From assembly GCF_003334785.1 (NCBI RefSeq), contig NZ_QOWV01000008.1: a DNA stretch of 64,000 nt. The stretch is one strand, 5' to 3'. The position numbers and the translations under genes are program-made. Below the pieces are notes generated by a model. It was not told the DNA's origin, made no database searches, and was given only the letters and a program-made list of their open reading frames with translations. This document shows, one piece after another, positions 3,483-47,313 of the stretch; positions within the stretch are counted from its first letter, which is position 1; each line of letters starts with the position of its first letter. The stretch comes from Escherichia coli (GTDB lineage Bacteria > Pseudomonadota > Gammaproteobacteria > Enterobacterales > Enterobacteriaceae).

Positions 3483-3752
3483 TCCCGTGGTAGCAAAGCG
3501 GGCATTTTAGCTGACCGAAAGAGAAAAGCAAACGTTTGCCACATCCTCATCTAAATATTTAAATGAGATAAATGCACTTTTTTATATAACTTTTGGTATT
3601 TTTCTGCTTAAAATCCATGCCATTTGTTCATTAACAGCTGAGAATTTGACCCAGGAAAGCATAACTCGATACCCGTCATAGTTCATGAAGTTGCCACTGC
3701 GCGATGAAGTATGACGAGTATGAAAGAGTGATGCGGATACAAAGGAGTAACT

Positions 3753-24225: not shown

Positions 24226-24237
24226 GGCGGTAGCGTG
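24226..24237 (+). promoter_or_regulatory. ops element (RfaH recruitment site) in JUMPstart leader of the waaQ operon
   Basis: Exact GGCGGTAGCGTG in the long leader, about 85 bp upstream of waaQ. Confidence 0.7.
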
Positions 24238-27298: not shown

Positions 27299-28279
27299 TT
27301 GTTGAAATATAGAAACTTCGTTGCTAAGAAGAAAAATTTATACCAAAACGAAGTGTCGTATGTTAAAAATTTACATATTGCACTATGCTTTGACCGTGAA
27401 TTCATAATGCCAGCGGGTGTTGCATTATATTCAATTATATCCAACAATAGACATATTAACCTTCATTTTCACCTTCTTATATCAGGCATAGAAGAAAAGG
27501 AGTGTTCAGCTTTTTACGAACTAGAAGGTCCTAATACATCAATATCTGTATATTATATAACTGATAAATTTGACATTAATCCGGATACATTAGTTCTTGG
27601 TATTCCTTTATCAACATGTTTACGTTTTTTAATCCCAGAAGTTATTGATGATAAAATAAATAAGATACTTTATCTTGACTGTGATGTCATATGTAATGGT
27701 CCTTTAGATGAACTGGTTGATTATAATTTAAATGCTGATATTGCATGTGTAATTCCAGATTCGCCAGAAATGCAAGAACGTGTAAAAAAATTAGACTATG
27801 GCATTGAGTTTATTAATTATTTTAATGCCGGGGTTATGTTTATTAATACCAGCGAATGGAAAAAAAATAATATAACACAAAAAGCGTTAGAAATGATCAA
27901 CAGTGGAAAAGTATATAGGTATGCAGATCAGGATGTGCTCAATATTTTACTTAATGGACGAGTGCATTACCTTGATAAGAAGTACAATAATAAGACAACA
28001 TTGTCAGTACGATGTGATGAAGAACAAAAAAACTTGCCCAACACAATTATAATGCATTATGTTACCCAGAATAAACCATGGTACAAAATATTTAGAGCAC
28101 AAAATTTTGATCATTATTTTTCAAATTCTCCTTGGAAGAACCATAAAAGAAATCTAGCTCCATCATCAAGTGAGATTAGGTTAAAGTCTAAAGTTTTTTG
28201 GCTAGAAGGAAAATATTGTAAAGCCATTTCTTATTATTATAAGTATTTACTTGTTAAATTATTTGGCTTAAAGATTTAG
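27299..28279 (+). CDS. GT8-family (retaining) glycosyltransferase at the waaS position of the core operon
   Basis: 326 aa; LDCDVICNG (DxD) and HYVTQNKPW motifs shared with waaO/waaJ paralogs; symbol left blank because only position, not sequence, suggests waaS. Confidence 0.55.
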   Translation: MLKYRNFVAKKKNLYQNEVSYVKNLHIALCFDREFIMPAGVALYSIISNNRHINLHFHLLISGIEEKECSAFYELEGPNTSISVYYITDKFDINPDTLVLGIPLSTCLRFLIPEVIDDKINKILYLDCDVICNGPLDELVDYNLNADIACVIPDSPEMQERVKKLDYGIEFINYFNAGVMFINTSEWKKNNITQKALEMINSGKVYRYADQDVLNILLNGRVHYLDKKYNNKTTLSVRCDEEQKNLPNTIIMHYVTQNKPWYKIFRAQNFDHYFSNSPWKNHKRNLAPSSSEIRLKSKVFWLEGKYCKAISYYYKYLLVKLFGLKI

Positions 28280-28292
28280 CTGGAATGAAATT

Positions 28293-29372
28293 ATGAAAAT
28301 AGCCTTTATTGGCGAAGCTGTTTCTGGATTTGGCGGCATGGAAACAGTCATTCGTGATGTTATTACTACCTTCAGGCAACAACATATCCAAAGTGAAATT
28401 TTTTTCTTTTGTCGTAATGACAAAATGGATAAGGGATGGCTGGAAGGTATTAAGTACTCGTGTTCATTTTCCAATATTCGCTTAGGTTTTTTGCGTCGCG
28501 CGAAACATATTCATGCTTTAAGCAAATGGCTTCATGATTATCAGCCAGATGTTGTTATTTGTATTGACGTGATCTCGTGTTTGTATGCGGCCAAAGCTCG
28601 TAAAAAATCGGGGATTGATGTACCTGTATTTTCATGGCCGCATTTTTCTTTAGATCATAAAAAACATGCCGAATATATCACCTGTGCCGACTATCATTTA
28701 GCCATCAGCTCTGGTATTAAACAGCAAATGATTAGCCGGGGTGTACCAGAATCGACAATAAACGTTATTTTTAATCCCGTTGAGGCGAAAAATTCAGTCA
28801 TTCCTGCACCCGGGGAAGGCGAAACGGCAACATTCATTTATGTTGGGCGCATGAAATTTGAAGGCCAAAAGCGCGTAAAAGATCTGCTTGATGGCTTATC
28901 ACAAGTGCAAGGTGACTGGAAACTTCATGTATTGGGAGATGGCTCCGATTTCGAAAAATGCCAGGCTTATGGTAGAGGATTAAATATTGATGATCGAATT
29001 GTCTGGTATGGTTGGCAACAACATCCCTGGAAATTAGTTCAGCAAGATATTAAAAAAGTGAGTGCATTATTACTCACGTCATCTTTTGAAGGTTTCCCAA
29101 TGACTCTACTTGAAGCCTTGTCGTGGGGGATCCCTTGTATCAGTGCAGATTGTGTCTCCGGGCCTGTTGATATCATTCAGCCTGATGTTAATGGTCATTT
29201 ATATCAACCGGGGGATATGACCGGTTTTGTTGCTCTTCTCAATAAATACATAGCCGGTGAAATTCACATCGCACATGAAAAAATTCCGGCGTCGATCGAT
29301 AAATTTTATCAACCGAAATATTACGACAGATTGCAAAAGATAATTATTTCTGTTATTTCCCGGAGGAAATAA
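28293..29372 (+). CDS. waaB: LPS core alpha-1,6-galactosyltransferase (GT4)
   Basis: 359 aa MKIAFIGEAVSGFGGMETVI...; E-x7-E motif. Confidence 0.85.
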   Translation: MKIAFIGEAVSGFGGMETVIRDVITTFRQQHIQSEIFFFCRNDKMDKGWLEGIKYSCSFSNIRLGFLRRAKHIHALSKWLHDYQPDVVICIDVISCLYAAKARKKSGIDVPVFSWPHFSLDHKKHAEYITCADYHLAISSGIKQQMISRGVPESTINVIFNPVEAKNSVIPAPGEGETATFIYVGRMKFEGQKRVKDLLDGLSQVQGDWKLHVLGDGSDFEKCQAYGRGLNIDDRIVWYGWQQHPWKLVQQDIKKVSALLLTSSFEGFPMTLLEALSWGIPCISADCVSGPVDIIQPDVNGHLYQPGDMTGFVALLNKYIAGEIHIAHEKIPASIDKFYQPKYYDRLQKIIISVISRRK

Positions 29373-30391
29373 TGCAGCAGGTTTTTTTCCAGGAGACTGA
29401 GTTTCTCAATTCGGTTATTGATTATAATCATAAAATAGAAGCAGAAAATCTTTGTCTGGATATTGCTTATGGGACTGACAAAAATTTTCTTTTTGGATGC
29501 GGAATATCGATTGCTTCAATATTAAAATATAATGAAGGAAATCAATTATGCTTTCATATTTTTACTGATTATTTCGGTGATGACGATCGCAAATATTTTG
29601 ATGCCCTGGCCAGGCAATATAAAACAAGAATTAAGATATATTTAATTAATGGTGATCGACTCCGTTCATTACCCTGCACCAAGAACTGGACTCATGCTAT
29701 TTATTTTCGTTTTGTTATCGCCGATTACTTTTTTAATAAAGCACCCAAAGTTCTTTATCTGGATGCAGATATTATTTGTCAGGGAACTATAGAACCACTT
29801 ATCAATTACACGTTTTCTGAACATACAGTCGCAATGGTTGTTACAGAAGGACAAAAAGACTGGTGGGCAAAACGTGCTCATTCGTTAGGTGTTGCTGGGA
29901 TTGCTAATGGTTACTTTAACTCCGGTTTTTTACTGATTAATACTAATCAATGGACGAATGAGCGGGTTTCTGCACGGGCCATTGCAATGTTAAGTGATCC
30001 AGAGATAGTCAAAAAAATAACACATCCTGATCAGGATGTATTAAATATGTTATTGGCAGACAAACTTGTTTATGCTGATATTAAATATAACACTCAGTTT
30101 AGTTTAAATTATCAACTAAAAGAAAGTTTTAAAAACCCAGTAACTAACGATACAGTTTTTATTCATTATATTGGTCCAACTAAACCCTGGCATGACTGGG
30201 CCTGGGATTATCCAATATCACAAGCTTTTATGGCGGCAAAAAATGCTTCACCATGGAAGGATACTGCGTTATTGAAACCGGTTAATAGTAATCAATTAAG
30301 ATACAGTGCTAAACATATGTTGAAAAAAAAGCAATATATCAAAGGATTTGGCAACTATCTTTTGTATTTTATAAAAAAGCTAAAGCATTAA
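29372..30391 (+). CDS. waaO: LPS core alpha-1,3-glucosyltransferase (GT8)
   Basis: 339 aa; LDADIICQG DxD and HYIGPTKPW motifs. Confidence 0.8.
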   Translation: MQQVFFQETEFLNSVIDYNHKIEAENLCLDIAYGTDKNFLFGCGISIASILKYNEGNQLCFHIFTDYFGDDDRKYFDALARQYKTRIKIYLINGDRLRSLPCTKNWTHAIYFRFVIADYFFNKAPKVLYLDADIICQGTIEPLINYTFSEHTVAMVVTEGQKDWWAKRAHSLGVAGIANGYFNSGFLLINTNQWTNERVSARAIAMLSDPEIVKKITHPDQDVLNMLLADKLVYADIKYNTQFSLNYQLKESFKNPVTNDTVFIHYIGPTKPWHDWAWDYPISQAFMAAKNASPWKDTALLKPVNSNQLRYSAKHMLKKKQYIKGFGNYLLYFIKKLKH

Positions 30392-30554
30392 TACTGATAA
30401 TCTATACTCTAAATAATTCGAGTTGCAGGACAAAAAGCCAGTGGCGTTTTGAGGAACGCTTGCGTTGGCCCTGAAATGCCGAGTAACTCGCCGATGCAGC
30501 ACATGCAACTTGAAGTATAACGAGTATATAAAGTAATGATATAAGGATAGCCTT

Positions 30555-31571
30555 GTGAACTCATTTCCTGCCATAGAGATAGATAAAGTTAAAGCCTGGG
30601 ATTTTAGGCTTATTGATGAAAATACTGCTGAAAGTTTAAATGTTGCCTATGGTGTCGATTCCAATTATCTTGATGGTGTAGGTGTTTCCATTACTTCAAT
30701 TGTCATTAATAATCGACATGTTAATCTTGATTTTTATATTATTGCTGATGTTTATAACGACGATTTCTTTCAAAAAGTTGAGAAACTTGCTGAGCAATAC
30801 CAATTAAGAATCACACTTTATAGAATAAATACTGATAATCTTCAGTGCCTGCCTTGTACACAAGTCTGGTCAAGAGCAATGTACTTCCGTTTATTTGCTT
30901 TTCAATTATTGGGAGTAACACTTAATCGTTTGCTTTATCTTGATGCCGATGTAGTTTGTAAGGGAAATATTAGTCAACTATTGCATTTAGAGTTTAATGG
31001 AGCGGTGGCTGCAGTAGTCAGGGATGTAGACCCAATGCAGGAAAAGGCGGTAGTCAGATTATCTGATCCTGAACTTCGGGGGCAGTATTTTAATTCTGGT
31101 GTCGTTTACTTAGACCTAAAAAAATGGACAGAAGCAAAACTAACCGAAAAAGCACTGTCTATTCTTATGAGTAAAGATAGTATTTATAAGTATCCTGACC
31201 AGGACGTTATGAATGTCCTACTAAAAGGGATGACAATATTCCTGCCACGTGAGTTCAATACTATATATACAATAAAAAGTGAGTTAAAAGATAAAACGCA
31301 TCAAAAATATAAAGAGTTGATAAAAGAGGATACTCTTCTTATTCATTATACTGGGGCCACCAAGCCGTGGCACAAATGGGCAATTTATCCATCGGTAAAA
31401 TACTATAAAATAGCTTTAGAAAGATCCCCCTGGAAAGATGACTCACCACGAGATGCAAAATCAATTATTGAATTCAAAAAAAGATATAAACATCTGTTAG
31501 TGCAACATCATTATATCTCAGGACTCATTGCAGGAGTGTGTTATCTTTGCCGAAAATATTACCGTAAATAA
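30555..31571 (+). CDS. waaJ: LPS core alpha-1,2-glucosyltransferase (GT8; WaaJ/WaaR)
   Basis: 338 aa; GTG start; LDADVVCKG and HYTGATKPW motifs. Confidence 0.8.
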   Translation: MNSFPAIEIDKVKAWDFRLIDENTAESLNVAYGVDSNYLDGVGVSITSIVINNRHVNLDFYIIADVYNDDFFQKVEKLAEQYQLRITLYRINTDNLQCLPCTQVWSRAMYFRLFAFQLLGVTLNRLLYLDADVVCKGNISQLLHLEFNGAVAAVVRDVDPMQEKAVVRLSDPELRGQYFNSGVVYLDLKKWTEAKLTEKALSILMSKDSIYKYPDQDVMNVLLKGMTIFLPREFNTIYTIKSELKDKTHQKYKELIKEDTLLIHYTGATKPWHKWAIYPSVKYYKIALERSPWKDDSPRDAKSIIEFKKRYKHLLVQHHYISGLIAGVCYLCRKYYRK

Positions 31572-36632: not shown

Positions 36633-37679
36633 TCAGGCTTCCTCTTGTAACAATAGAGAGTTGAGTTCTTCCAGCACGCGCTGGGGAGTAATGTCGATCA
36701 AGCTCTGGTGATAACCTTCTGCGGCGTCGCCTTTGCGTACTTTGTGATAGCCGGTAATCAGGCGGATCACGCGCGCTTTATGGGATAGCGGCGGTGTGAA
36801 GTCCGGGCTACTCGGACCATACAGGGCAACCAGCGGACGATTGAGCGCCGCCGCAACGTGCATCAGGCCAGAATCGTTAGTGACAATGGCTTTACAGGCT
36901 GCAATCAGGATAACCGCTTGATCAAGCTGTGTTTCCCCCGCCAGGTTCCGGCACCATGCCTGCTGCTCGGTATTTAAAGCGGCAAGAATCTCATTGCCCG
37001 CTTCATGATCTTTCGCCGAGCCAAACAGAACCACTTGATAACCTTCATCAATCAGTTGCTTTGCCAGTTCCGCATAGTGGTAGTGTGGCCAGCGTTTTGC
37101 CGGACCAAACTCCGCACCCGGGCAAAAACCAATCATTGGACGTTCTGATGAAAGCGAAAATTGATTACAGGTATATGATTTTTCACCTTCGCTCACCTGC
37201 AACTGCGGCCATAACAATGGCTGCGGCAGATCTTGTGCGGTACGCATAATACCTTTGTCATAGGCCAGCGCCACATAGCGTTCCACCATCAGCGGCCAGG
37301 CTTCTTTATCCAGCACACGCACATCGTTGAGTAAACCGTAGCGCATTTCGCCGCGCCAGCCGGTGCGATGAGGAATACCCGCGAAGAAAGGCACTAATGC
37401 GGATTTGAAGGAGTTGGGTAAAACGTAGGCGCGGTCGTAACGTTTTTCGCGCAGGCTATGACCCAGCTTGCGGCGTTCGCCAATTTCCAGCGCCCCGTGA
37501 CCAAGCGGCATAGGAATGGCTTCGTTAACTTCCGGCATCCGCGATAATAATGGACGGCACCATGCCGGTGCCATCACGTCGATTATCGCCTGGGGATAGC
37601 GCGCCTGGAGCGTGCGATAGAGACTTTGCGACATCATCATGTCGCCAACCCATGACGGGCCGATCACCAATATTTTCAT
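36633..37679 (-). CDS. waaF: LPS heptosyltransferase II
   Basis: 348 aa MKILVIGPSWVGDMMMSQSLYRTL... Confidence 0.9.
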   Translation of the reverse strand: MKILVIGPSWVGDMMMSQSLYRTLQARYPQAIIDVMAPAWCRPLLSRMPEVNEAIPMPLGHGALEIGERRKLGHSLREKRYDRAYVLPNSFKSALVPFFAGIPHRTGWRGEMRYGLLNDVRVLDKEAWPLMVERYVALAYDKGIMRTAQDLPQPLLWPQLQVSEGEKSYTCNQFSLSSERPMIGFCPGAEFGPAKRWPHYHYAELAKQLIDEGYQVVLFGSAKDHEAGNEILAALNTEQQAWCRNLAGETQLDQAVILIAACKAIVTNDSGLMHVAAALNRPLVALYGPSSPDFTPPLSHKARVIRLITGYHKVRKGDAAEGYHQSLIDITPQRVLEELNSLLLQEEA

Positions 37680-37687
37680 TCACTTCA

Positions 37688-37806
37688 TCCTTCAAGCTGT
37701 CTCTGCGGCGGCTGCCTGCGTTCACTCCGGTCACTTACTTTTGTAAGCTCCCGGAGATTCACTTAGTTGCTGCCTTGATACCGCTCGAATGATTTTGTGA
37801 ATTTAC
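37688..37806. repeat. ERIC/IRU-like intergenic repeat between hldD and waaF
   Basis: Core GTGAATCTCCGGGAGCTTACAAAAGTAAGTGACCGGAGTGAACG (minus strand, 37719-37762) closely resembles the ERIC central inverted repeat as I recall it. Confidence 0.55.
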
Positions 37807-46244: not shown

Positions 46245-46488
46245 TGCGACAACCTCATACTCAAGAGTCAAAATTTGCGTAATTTTACTACAGCTGAATC
46301 GATAAAATAGCCTCTGAAGATCAAAATATACGACCGCTCGCGGCAAGCCGATGCCAGATTTGCGCTTTTTTTTCGTCGTGCCCCGCAAAATTGCATTCCA
46401 GTTAACGCGCTGGCTGTATTTGCCGCACCGCGCAGGTATACTCCTTTCCTGGTTTTTTTAATCACTACGTCGGGAGTTGTTACCCCCC

Positions 46489-46920
46489 ATGCAAGAAATT
46501 ATGCAATTTGTTGGCCGTCATCCCATACTGAGTATCGCCTGGATCGCGTTACTGGTGGCGGTTCTTGTGACTACGTTTAAGAGCCTGACCTCGAAAGTGA
46601 AGGTGATTACTCGTGGTGAAGCTACGCGTCTGATCAACAAAGAAGACGCTGTGGTTGTGGATTTACGTCAGCGTGATGACTTCCGTAAAGGCCATATCGC
46701 AGGTTCTATCAATCTGTTGCCGAGCGAAATCAAAGCCAACAATGTTGGTGAGCTTGAGAAGCACAAAGACAAACCGGTTATCGTGGTAGACGGTTCTGGC
46801 ATGCAGTGCCAGGAGCCTGCAAACGCGCTGACGAAAGCTGGTTTTGCGCAAGTATTCGTGCTGAAAGAGGGCGTTGCTGGCTGGGCTGGCGAAAACTTGC
46901 CTCTGGTGCGCGGCAAATAA
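46489..46920 (+). CDS. yibN: Rhodanese-domain inner membrane protein YibN
   Basis: 143 aa from [12 protein letters not shown]. Confidence 0.85.
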
Positions 46921-47061
46921 TTTACCTGTCGTCTTTCATGATGCAGGCCGTTAGCTGCAATTAGGCCCCCAGCGACTTATTGTTATAAGCTTCTGGGGAC
47001 ACTCCATTTTGCAGCCGCCCTGCAACATGAAATTTCAGGGTAAAAAAACAGGAGCTAAATT

Positions 47062-47313
47062 ATGGCCAATGTTGAAATCTATACCAAAGAAACCTGCCCG
47101 TATTGCCATCGTGCAAAAGCACTGCTGAGCAGCAAGGGCGTGAGTTTTCAGGAGTTGCCGATCGATGGCAATGCCGCCAAGCGTGAAGAGATGATCAAAC
47201 GCAGCGGTCGCACCACGGTTCCCCAGATTTTTATTGACGCACAGCACATTGGCGGCTGTGATGACTTGTATGCATTGGATGCACGTGGTGGACTGGATCC
47301 CCTGCTGAAATAA
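47062..47313 (+). CDS. grxC: Glutaredoxin 3
   Basis: 83 aa with CPYC active site. Confidence 0.95.

Follow-up and report, generated by a model that had tools for sequence, protein, structure and literature searches.

Repeats of the ERIC family, also known as IRU or RU-1, are said to have been treated by Sharples and Lloyd in 1990, by Hulton et al. in 1991 and by Wilson and Sharp in 2006, and De Gregorio reportedly noted in 2005 that ERIC is accompanied by duplication of a TA dinucleotide. Insertions in ERICs, and deletions associated with palindromes, were reportedly the concern of Sharp and Leach in 1996, Cromie et al. in 1997 and Sharp in 1997. The typical element is a MITE of 127 bp; it has inverted repeats at its ends, terminates in 5′TA3′ and is accompanied by a target-site duplication (PMC2229807, Table 1; PMC3184786), and ERIC-like repeats also occur in Vibrio (PMC2267715). 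In Yersinia, ERICs are described as changing the stability of flanking mRNA according to their orientation, with RNase E and ribosome-dependent unfolding taking part (summarised in PMC2229807, PMC3184786 and PMC10969869). In the current study, we characterized the spacer between waaO and waaJ within a 64-kb window of Escherichia coli DNA, the window being the whole stretch that was analysed (Table 1). A segment of this spacer is a miniature inverted-repeat element of the ERIC/IRU family, and what the waa spacer holds is an ordinary known mobile repeat in rearranged form rather than a new RNA element. The best explanation of the observations, and one that we consider very likely to be correct, is that a core-less ERIC/IRU MITE occupies a TA site and is carried as a passenger in the operon mRNA.

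The waaQ operon runs on the + strand in the order waaQ, waaG, waaP, a GT8 paralogue, waaB, waaO, waaJ (rfaJ), waaY, waaZ and a gene for a WaaK-type GlcNAc transferase; waaL, waaC, waaF and hldD lie on the strand opposite to it. The ops element marks the waaQ operon as RfaH-dependent, and an operon of this kind is transcribed by a termination-resistant polymerase. Since the locus carries a WaaK-type GlcNAc transferase, it would belong to the R2 core type. The original prediction had drawn attention to a 163-bp spacer between waaO and waaJ, and this measurement stands, with the waaO TAA ending at 30391 and the waaJ GTG beginning at 30555. Its further remark that neighbouring junctions overlap or lie within 35 bp is right for most of them but not for waaY–waaZ, which are 71 bp apart. 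The remaining gaps of the operon are −4, −8, 32, 13, −1, 17, 71 and 10 bp, and against this range of −8 to 71 bp the waaO–waaJ spacer is therefore an outlier. The comparatively GC-rich segment that had been reported is also present: the spacer centre (30428–30503) has 55.3% GC, as compared with 33.6% in waaO and 34.9% in waaJ. The spacer owes its length to the 126-bp ERIC/IRU element that occupies a TA site within it; this site follows the waaO stop codon by 11 nt and precedes the start codon of waaJ by 26 nt.

Three smaller features of the operon were seen as well. At the position of waaS in K-12 (27299–28279, + strand), the window encodes a 326-aa GT8-family glycosyltransferase, a third paralogue of WaaO and WaaJ, which scores 183.6 bits against NF011718, under the cutoff of 461 bits, and which PGAP labels only as 'glycosyltransferase family 8 protein'. 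On the strand antisense to waaO (30018–30043, −), a hairpin of 11 pairs, of which 3 are G–C, resembles a terminator together with its T-run; in coding sequence so rich in A and T, such a match is probably due to chance. Right before the GTG of waaJ, the Shine-Dalgarno region (30543–30554, +) could form a 4-bp mini-hairpin (AAGG-AUAG-CCUU), which the K-12 sequence (AAGGGUAGCAUU) is unable to form; the structure is weak and possibly irrelevant.

Table 1. Features of the waaO–waaJ junction and its operon, in window coordinates.
Feature	Position	Strand	Remarks
ops element GGCGGTAGCGTG	24226–24237	+	Exact match, 47 nt upstream of the waaQ start
waaO	29372–30391	+	Ends in TAA (stop codon 30389–30391), 11 nt 5′ of the element
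TA target copies	Left 30401–30404, right 30527–30530		TATA context, so that the boundary is ambiguous by 2 nt
Core-less ERIC/IRU (RU-1) element, 126 bp including TA at both ends	30403–30528	+ (mRNA sense)	Profile, termini, empty site
Left terminal inverted repeat TATACTCTAAATAATTCGAGTTGCA	30403–30427	+	Arms of 25 nt, 80% complementary
Non-canonical centre	30431–30490	+	Replaces the canonical ERIC core; from the left-hand insertion of long ERICs
Right terminal inverted repeat TGCAACTTGAAGTATAACGAGTATA	30504–30528	+	Arm pairing; SeRU-1 match
waaJ/rfaJ ribosome-binding site (AAGGA) and GTG start	30543–30557	+	Outside the element; conserved in the K-12 empty site
waaJ/rfaJ	30555–31571	+	GTG start

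Membership of the family is evident from the ends of the element. Its left 28 nt are identical at 28 of 28 positions to the published Salmonella ERIC SeRU-1, and its right 35 nt (30494–30528) match SeRU-1 at 34 of 35, while its middle does not align with that sequence (127 nt, compared as the reverse complement); the reference sequence was taken from Delihas 2007, Table 1a (PMC2759123). An nhmmer profile built from two published ERIC sequences and three canonical E. coli copies aligned along model positions 1–127 to 30403–30528, with an E-value of 1.1e-12. When the whole spacer was used as a megablast query, one copy was recovered in 498 of the 5,426 complete E. coli genomes. A blastn search with 30400–30532, in turn, produced a match in every one of the 5,426, at a median of 5 and a maximum of 10 places per genome; some of these matches were full-length at 72–80% identity, and many were limited to the two ends at ~94%. 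Such a distribution is the pattern of a family of dispersed repeats whose termini are conserved. Copies of the family were seen at yafP–prfH (in a K-12 derivative), yeiS–preT, ybhJ–ybhI and uhpA–ilvN, and alignment showed that those at yafP–prfH, yeiS–preT and ybhJ–ybhI bear the canonical ERIC core. The canonical cores that were retrieved include the sequence of primer ERIC2, AAGTAAGTGACTGGGGTGAGCG, as well as that complementary to primer ERIC1R. The element lies on the + strand, in the sense of the mRNA, presumably the same orientation as the consensus of Wilson and Sharp. As a check on its identity, the termini recur elsewhere in the genome and the empty sites described below are not artefacts. 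A search of the literature found no paper linking ERIC with the waaO, waaJ, waaR or R2 junction.

Comparison of the junction among complete E. coli genomes, using a 1,351-bp query that spans it, yielded two types. In about 486 genomes the junction aligned as one piece at 90% identity or more, and in about 1,050, K-12 derivatives among them, it aligned at 80–90% identity in two pieces and was ~124 bp shorter. The gap between waaO and rfaJ is 39 bp in both K-12 (MGY) and L1PEag1, and relative to these two junctions the alignment gives the window exactly 124 additional bases. The K-12 junction reads ...GGGAAAC-TA-TAAAGTAATGA..., and the window reads ...GATAATC-TA-TACTC...ACGAGTA-TA-TAAAGTAATGA...; thus, the empty-site target is a single TA in K-12 and AA in L1PEag1, as opposed to TA...TA in the window. 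Judged from this alignment, the two junction types are the filled and the empty site of an insertion at TA, in keeping with the TA duplication reported for ERIC, although precise loss of the element in the K-12 lineage may be an alternative to insertion. Because no transposase that moves ERIC is known (PMC2229807), the term 'mobile' rests here on the comparison of filled and empty sites. We infer mobility from these sites together with the occurrence of the same core-less form at two loci.

The centre of the waa copy could not be aligned to the canonical ERIC core and has no sites for the ERIC1R and ERIC2 primers. With the canonical core absent, the copy is therefore a deletion derivative and not a canonical member of the family. 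When the 76-nt centre was searched by blastn over the E. coli genomes, it was found in 496 genomes, at one place in each and almost solely at this site, and a related partial copy was found downstream of mnmH in strain RMDEC465. Since the centre occurs almost only at waaO–waaJ, the idea that it represents a separate and abundant subfamily in E. coli was rejected. A pattern for the centre (CGTTTTGANNAACNNTTGCNNNNNNCCTGAAA) was then scanned over one genome per species in 100,044 species and gave six matches, all within Escherichia: one each in E. albertii, E. coli and Escherichia sp. E1V33, and three in E. whittamii. All six are a ~70-bp insertion in the left half of an otherwise canonical ERIC. 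Most ERICs with this left-hand insertion also bear a related insertion in the right half, as in strain JCH767, for a total of 273 bp, and both insertions terminate in GGCCGA(G/A)TAAC. When the 134 bp between these direct repeats were deleted in silico from the 273-bp ERIC, the canonical core and the right-hand insertion were both taken out, and the resulting recombinant was 92.1% identical to the window element, 94.4% to its ortholog in 32F4 and 83.2% to the uhpA–ilvN copy of E138. These three copies have an extra 13-bp deletion in common. Because the recombinant matches all of them and the 13-bp deletion is joint, the waa element descends from one core-less progenitor, which came to occupy two or more sites in the genome. 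In a local alignment of the centre with the right-hand insertion of JCH767, the score was 9 and 378 of 2,000 shuffles were as good or better; as this right-hand similarity by itself is not significant, the derivation of the centre rests on the left-hand insertion and the junction.

Long ERICs of 209–273 bp carry one or two related insertions of ~70–78 bp at symmetric positions (loci L006, 1201–1409, and L011–L016), and the left-hand insertion was found solely in Escherichia among the 100,044 species representatives, at three orthologous loci. The copy downstream of mnmH in RMDEC465 (L010, 1465–1640) is an independent ERIC derivative that retains the whole left insertion, has lost the canonical core between GAGTGA and GAGCGA, and has a rearranged right end. 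To judge by its arrangement, this derivative shows that the palindromic core has been lost recurrently.

The original prediction had also described an inverted repeat, AGTTGCA...TGCAACT. Both halves are present, at 30421–30427 and 30504–30510, and they prove to be the inner tips of the longer arms listed in Table 1; neither arm was found in 100 shuffles of the window. Folding bore out the description of the spacer as structured: as RNA, the 126-nt element reaches −41.8 kcal/mol (z = −3.98), and none of 200 shuffles was as stable. The minimum-free-energy fold is a single long stem closed by the inverted repeats. For the whole spacer z was −2.78, and the centre alone folds no better than chance (z = −0.49). 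A canonical ERIC copy forms a more stable hairpin, at −53.5 kcal/mol vs. −41.8 kcal/mol for the element.

Conservation of the element could be followed between essentially two haplotypes of the orthologous insertion, one comprising 478 near-identical genomes and the other a 3-genome clade (32F4) at 93% identity. The window and 32F4 elements differ at 11 of 126 positions (8.7%), all of them in the centre and right arm, and at none of the 28 positions of the left end. Divergence at third codon positions between the same two haplotypes is 5.3% in waaO and 1.2% in rfaJ, both below the 8.7% of the element. Changes derived in the window haplotype, e.g., C to A at 30436 and G to T at 30477, disrupt local stems that both 32F4 and the long ERICs retain, and a T to C change at 30510 in 32F4 breaks a pair of the inverted-repeat stem; the predicted hairpin energies are −41.8 kcal/mol for the window and −47.2 kcal/mol for 32F4. 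With only two haplotypes, the analysis of covariation was therefore reduced to a pairwise comparison, and no compensatory pair changes were found among the 11 substitutions in this test of low power between two diverged haplotypes. The element is apparently fixed in its locus type, with about 484–498 genomes having the spacer and ~486 the same flanking alleles, and this fixation could stem from selection instead of hitch-hiking.

Two further ERICs were detected in the window by the nhmmer profile; searches of the window with the arms, either exact or with up to 3 mismatches, gave no other copy, and the diverged ERICs surfaced only by profile. The second ERIC (37677–37803, −; E = 3.7e-24) has a canonical core with degenerate ends and lies at the junction of hldD (rfaD) and waaF. 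Its left arm overlaps approximately the last 14 codons of hldD (stop codon 37759–37761), its right end abuts the waaF ATG at 37679, and its orientation to transcription is the same as that of the waaO–waaJ copy. The third (46921–47044, −; E = 5e-9) is more diverged and is located 3 nt after the stop codon of a 147-aa ORF on the + strand (46477–46920), upstream of an 83-aa ORF (47062–47313). Going by the sizes of the ORFs, these two are probably yibN and grxC, and secB and gpsA would come next. At 3668–3722, there is in addition a short palindrome of two inverted sequences resembling the ERIC right end (ATACCCGTCATAGTTCA...TGAAGTATGACGAGTAT; nhmmer E = 0.16 and 0.21), which could be either a mini-ERIC left by extensive deletion or a match due to chance.

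The element would be transcribed as part of the long ops/RfaH-dependent mRNA of the waaQ operon, and its inverted repeats would fold there into a hairpin of about −42 kcal/mol; the co-transcription, and any effect on the mRNA, we only infer. The ribosome-binding site and start codon of waaJ are untouched, and we hold with considerable confidence that the element is a tolerated passenger. Its sole plausible activity would be to alter, modestly and depending on orientation, how stable the flanking mRNA segments are or how they are processed, whether as a barrier to 3′–5′ decay or through an RNase E site that the hairpin exposes or masks, as reported for ERICs in Yersinia. By analogy, such a processing or stability effect at waaO–waaJ is possible.

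The original prediction had offered an RNA element, a processing site or an internal promoter as explanations of the spacer. None of these is supported: the segment is a dispersed ERIC that is absent from the K-12-type junction, and no Rfam family reaches its threshold there. Covariance-model and conservation searches pointed the same way, with no Rfam match at threshold, no compensatory changes and an interior that is 8.7% diverged. Rfam searches at permissive E-values returned nothing near a gathering score over the spacer, the best overlaps being SNORD19B, with 18.7 bits against a gathering score of 50, and V_AS5, with 16.5 bits against one of 96. Of these, the Vibrio antisense RNA V_AS5 (RF02818) has a weak full-length similarity to 30402–30520 on the + strand (E = 0.43), which is confined to inverted-repeat-like motifs; membership was rejected on the score of 16.5 bits against 96. 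The similarity probably reflects ancestry in common with the ERICs of Vibrio, and the RF02818 family may itself be derived from a Vibrio ERIC. It is also conceivable that the element was exapted as a cis-acting RNA, the hairpin of which partitions the waa mRNA and so sets the ratio of inner- to outer-core enzymes in R2-type strains, either by stabilising the upstream waaQ–O segment or by supplying an RNase E or RNase III processing site. We regard this as unlikely. The stable hairpin (z = −3.98), the presence of the element in essentially all genomes of the locus type and the invariance of the left inverted repeat between haplotypes would suit such a role, as would the effect of Yersinia ERICs on flanking transcripts, whose stability they alter by orientation (De Gregorio 2005, as summarised in PMC2229807 and PMC10969869). 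However, loci of the K-12 type have the same order of genes and function without the element, and the interior is more diverged (8.7%) than the flanking genes are at synonymous-like sites (5.3% and 1.2%). The stem-breaking changes at 30436, 30477 and 30510 are uncompensated, and with 11 nt between the stop codon and the element, a ribosome that terminates there would presumably get no further than the base of the hairpin. In addition, linkage within one locus haplotype explains the fixation equally well. The narrower proposal that the core-less ERIC was fixed because its hairpin divides the RfaH-dependent mRNA into two halves that differ in stability, thereby tuning WaaJ/Y/Z/K against the inner-core enzymes, strikes us as quite improbable.

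Transcription signals are a still poorer account of the spacer. A promoter inside the spacer that serves waaJ-waaY-waaZ-waaK, or else an attenuator or terminator between two transcription units, would fit the unusually long gap, and a weak sigma-70-like match (TTAATA-18-AATAAT, 9/12) at 30388–30417 straddles the left end of the element. Yet the region has 8 promoter-like matches, no excess over the 5.0 ± 2.5 expected by chance; the best of them lie inside genes, only the 9/12 match touches the spacer, and the predicted internal promoter is not supported. The spacer holds no terminator-like site and no T-run follows the hairpin; moreover, RfaH-modified polymerase would read through such a signal, as is expected because the operon has an ops element. 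At the K-12 junction, just 39 bp accommodate the same ribosome-binding site and start codon, and we rate a promoter or terminator function as very improbable. We give next to no credence to a small protein encoded on the minus strand (30574–30380, 64 aa; 30564–30409, 51 aa) or to an independent small RNA gene. Both frames are uninterrupted in the window as well as in the 32F4 haplotype, and ERIC is known to contain open frames (PMC2759123), but these two exist solely through insertion of the element, start antisense within waaJ and differ by many amino-acid changes between haplotypes, as would be the case without constraint. A small RNA gene could draw on the weak full-length similarity to V_AS5 (16.5 bits, E = 0.43); however, no Rfam family reaches its gathering score, and a similarity limited to inverted-repeat-like motifs is what would be expected if the Vibrio RNA were ERIC-derived. 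The ERIC passenger remains the reading that we prefer for the waaO–waaJ spacer.

On that reading, an anomalous gap in a well-studied LPS core operon is explained by insertion of a mobile repeat and not by a new regulator, which spares follow-up effort. Because the element separates the junction types (~486 vs. ~1,050 complete genomes), its presence or absence could serve as a simple marker of the type of waaO–waaJ junction, and the waa copy is an ERIC that lacks the sites for the standard ERIC-PCR primers. The way in which a 273-bp double-insertion ERIC gave rise to a core-less one of 126 bp, which then appeared at two loci, illustrates the evolution of elements that keep their ends. If the element does affect mRNA stability, it would provide an E. 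coli counterpart of the findings in Yersinia, and if its hairpin does split the operon mRNA, it would be a domesticated MITE acting as an intra-operon element of RNA stability or processing in E. coli.

Among known systems, REP/BIME and Correia/NEMIS repeats are also co-transcribed hairpin repeats that protect or cleave segments of mRNA (PMC2229807), but their sequences are unrelated to the waa element; REP elements are ~35–40 nt long and have no TA target-site duplication, and Correia elements are Neisseria-specific RNase III substrates. With the Yersinia ERICs of De Gregorio et al. (2005), the waa copy has in common that an ERIC capable of forming an RNA hairpin lies in a polycistronic unit near the upstream stop codon. 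The waa copy differs from them in its centre and in starting 11 nt after the stop codon instead of overlapping it. With ERIC/IRU/RU-1 as a whole, the element agrees in its termini, its size of ~127 bp, its TA ends and TA target, its intergenic site within a transcription unit, its potential to fold into a long hairpin and its membership of a dispersed, low-copy E. coli family. In contrast to the canonical form, its ~60-nt centre is not the palindromic core, the ERIC1R and ERIC2 primer sites are absent, and the hairpin is weaker. Also close are the 273-bp double-insertion ERICs of E. whittamii, E. albertii and Escherichia sp., to the left insertion and right junction of which the window centre is 92% identical; compared with these long ERICs, the waa copy is wholly core-less and has returned to a size of ~126 bp.
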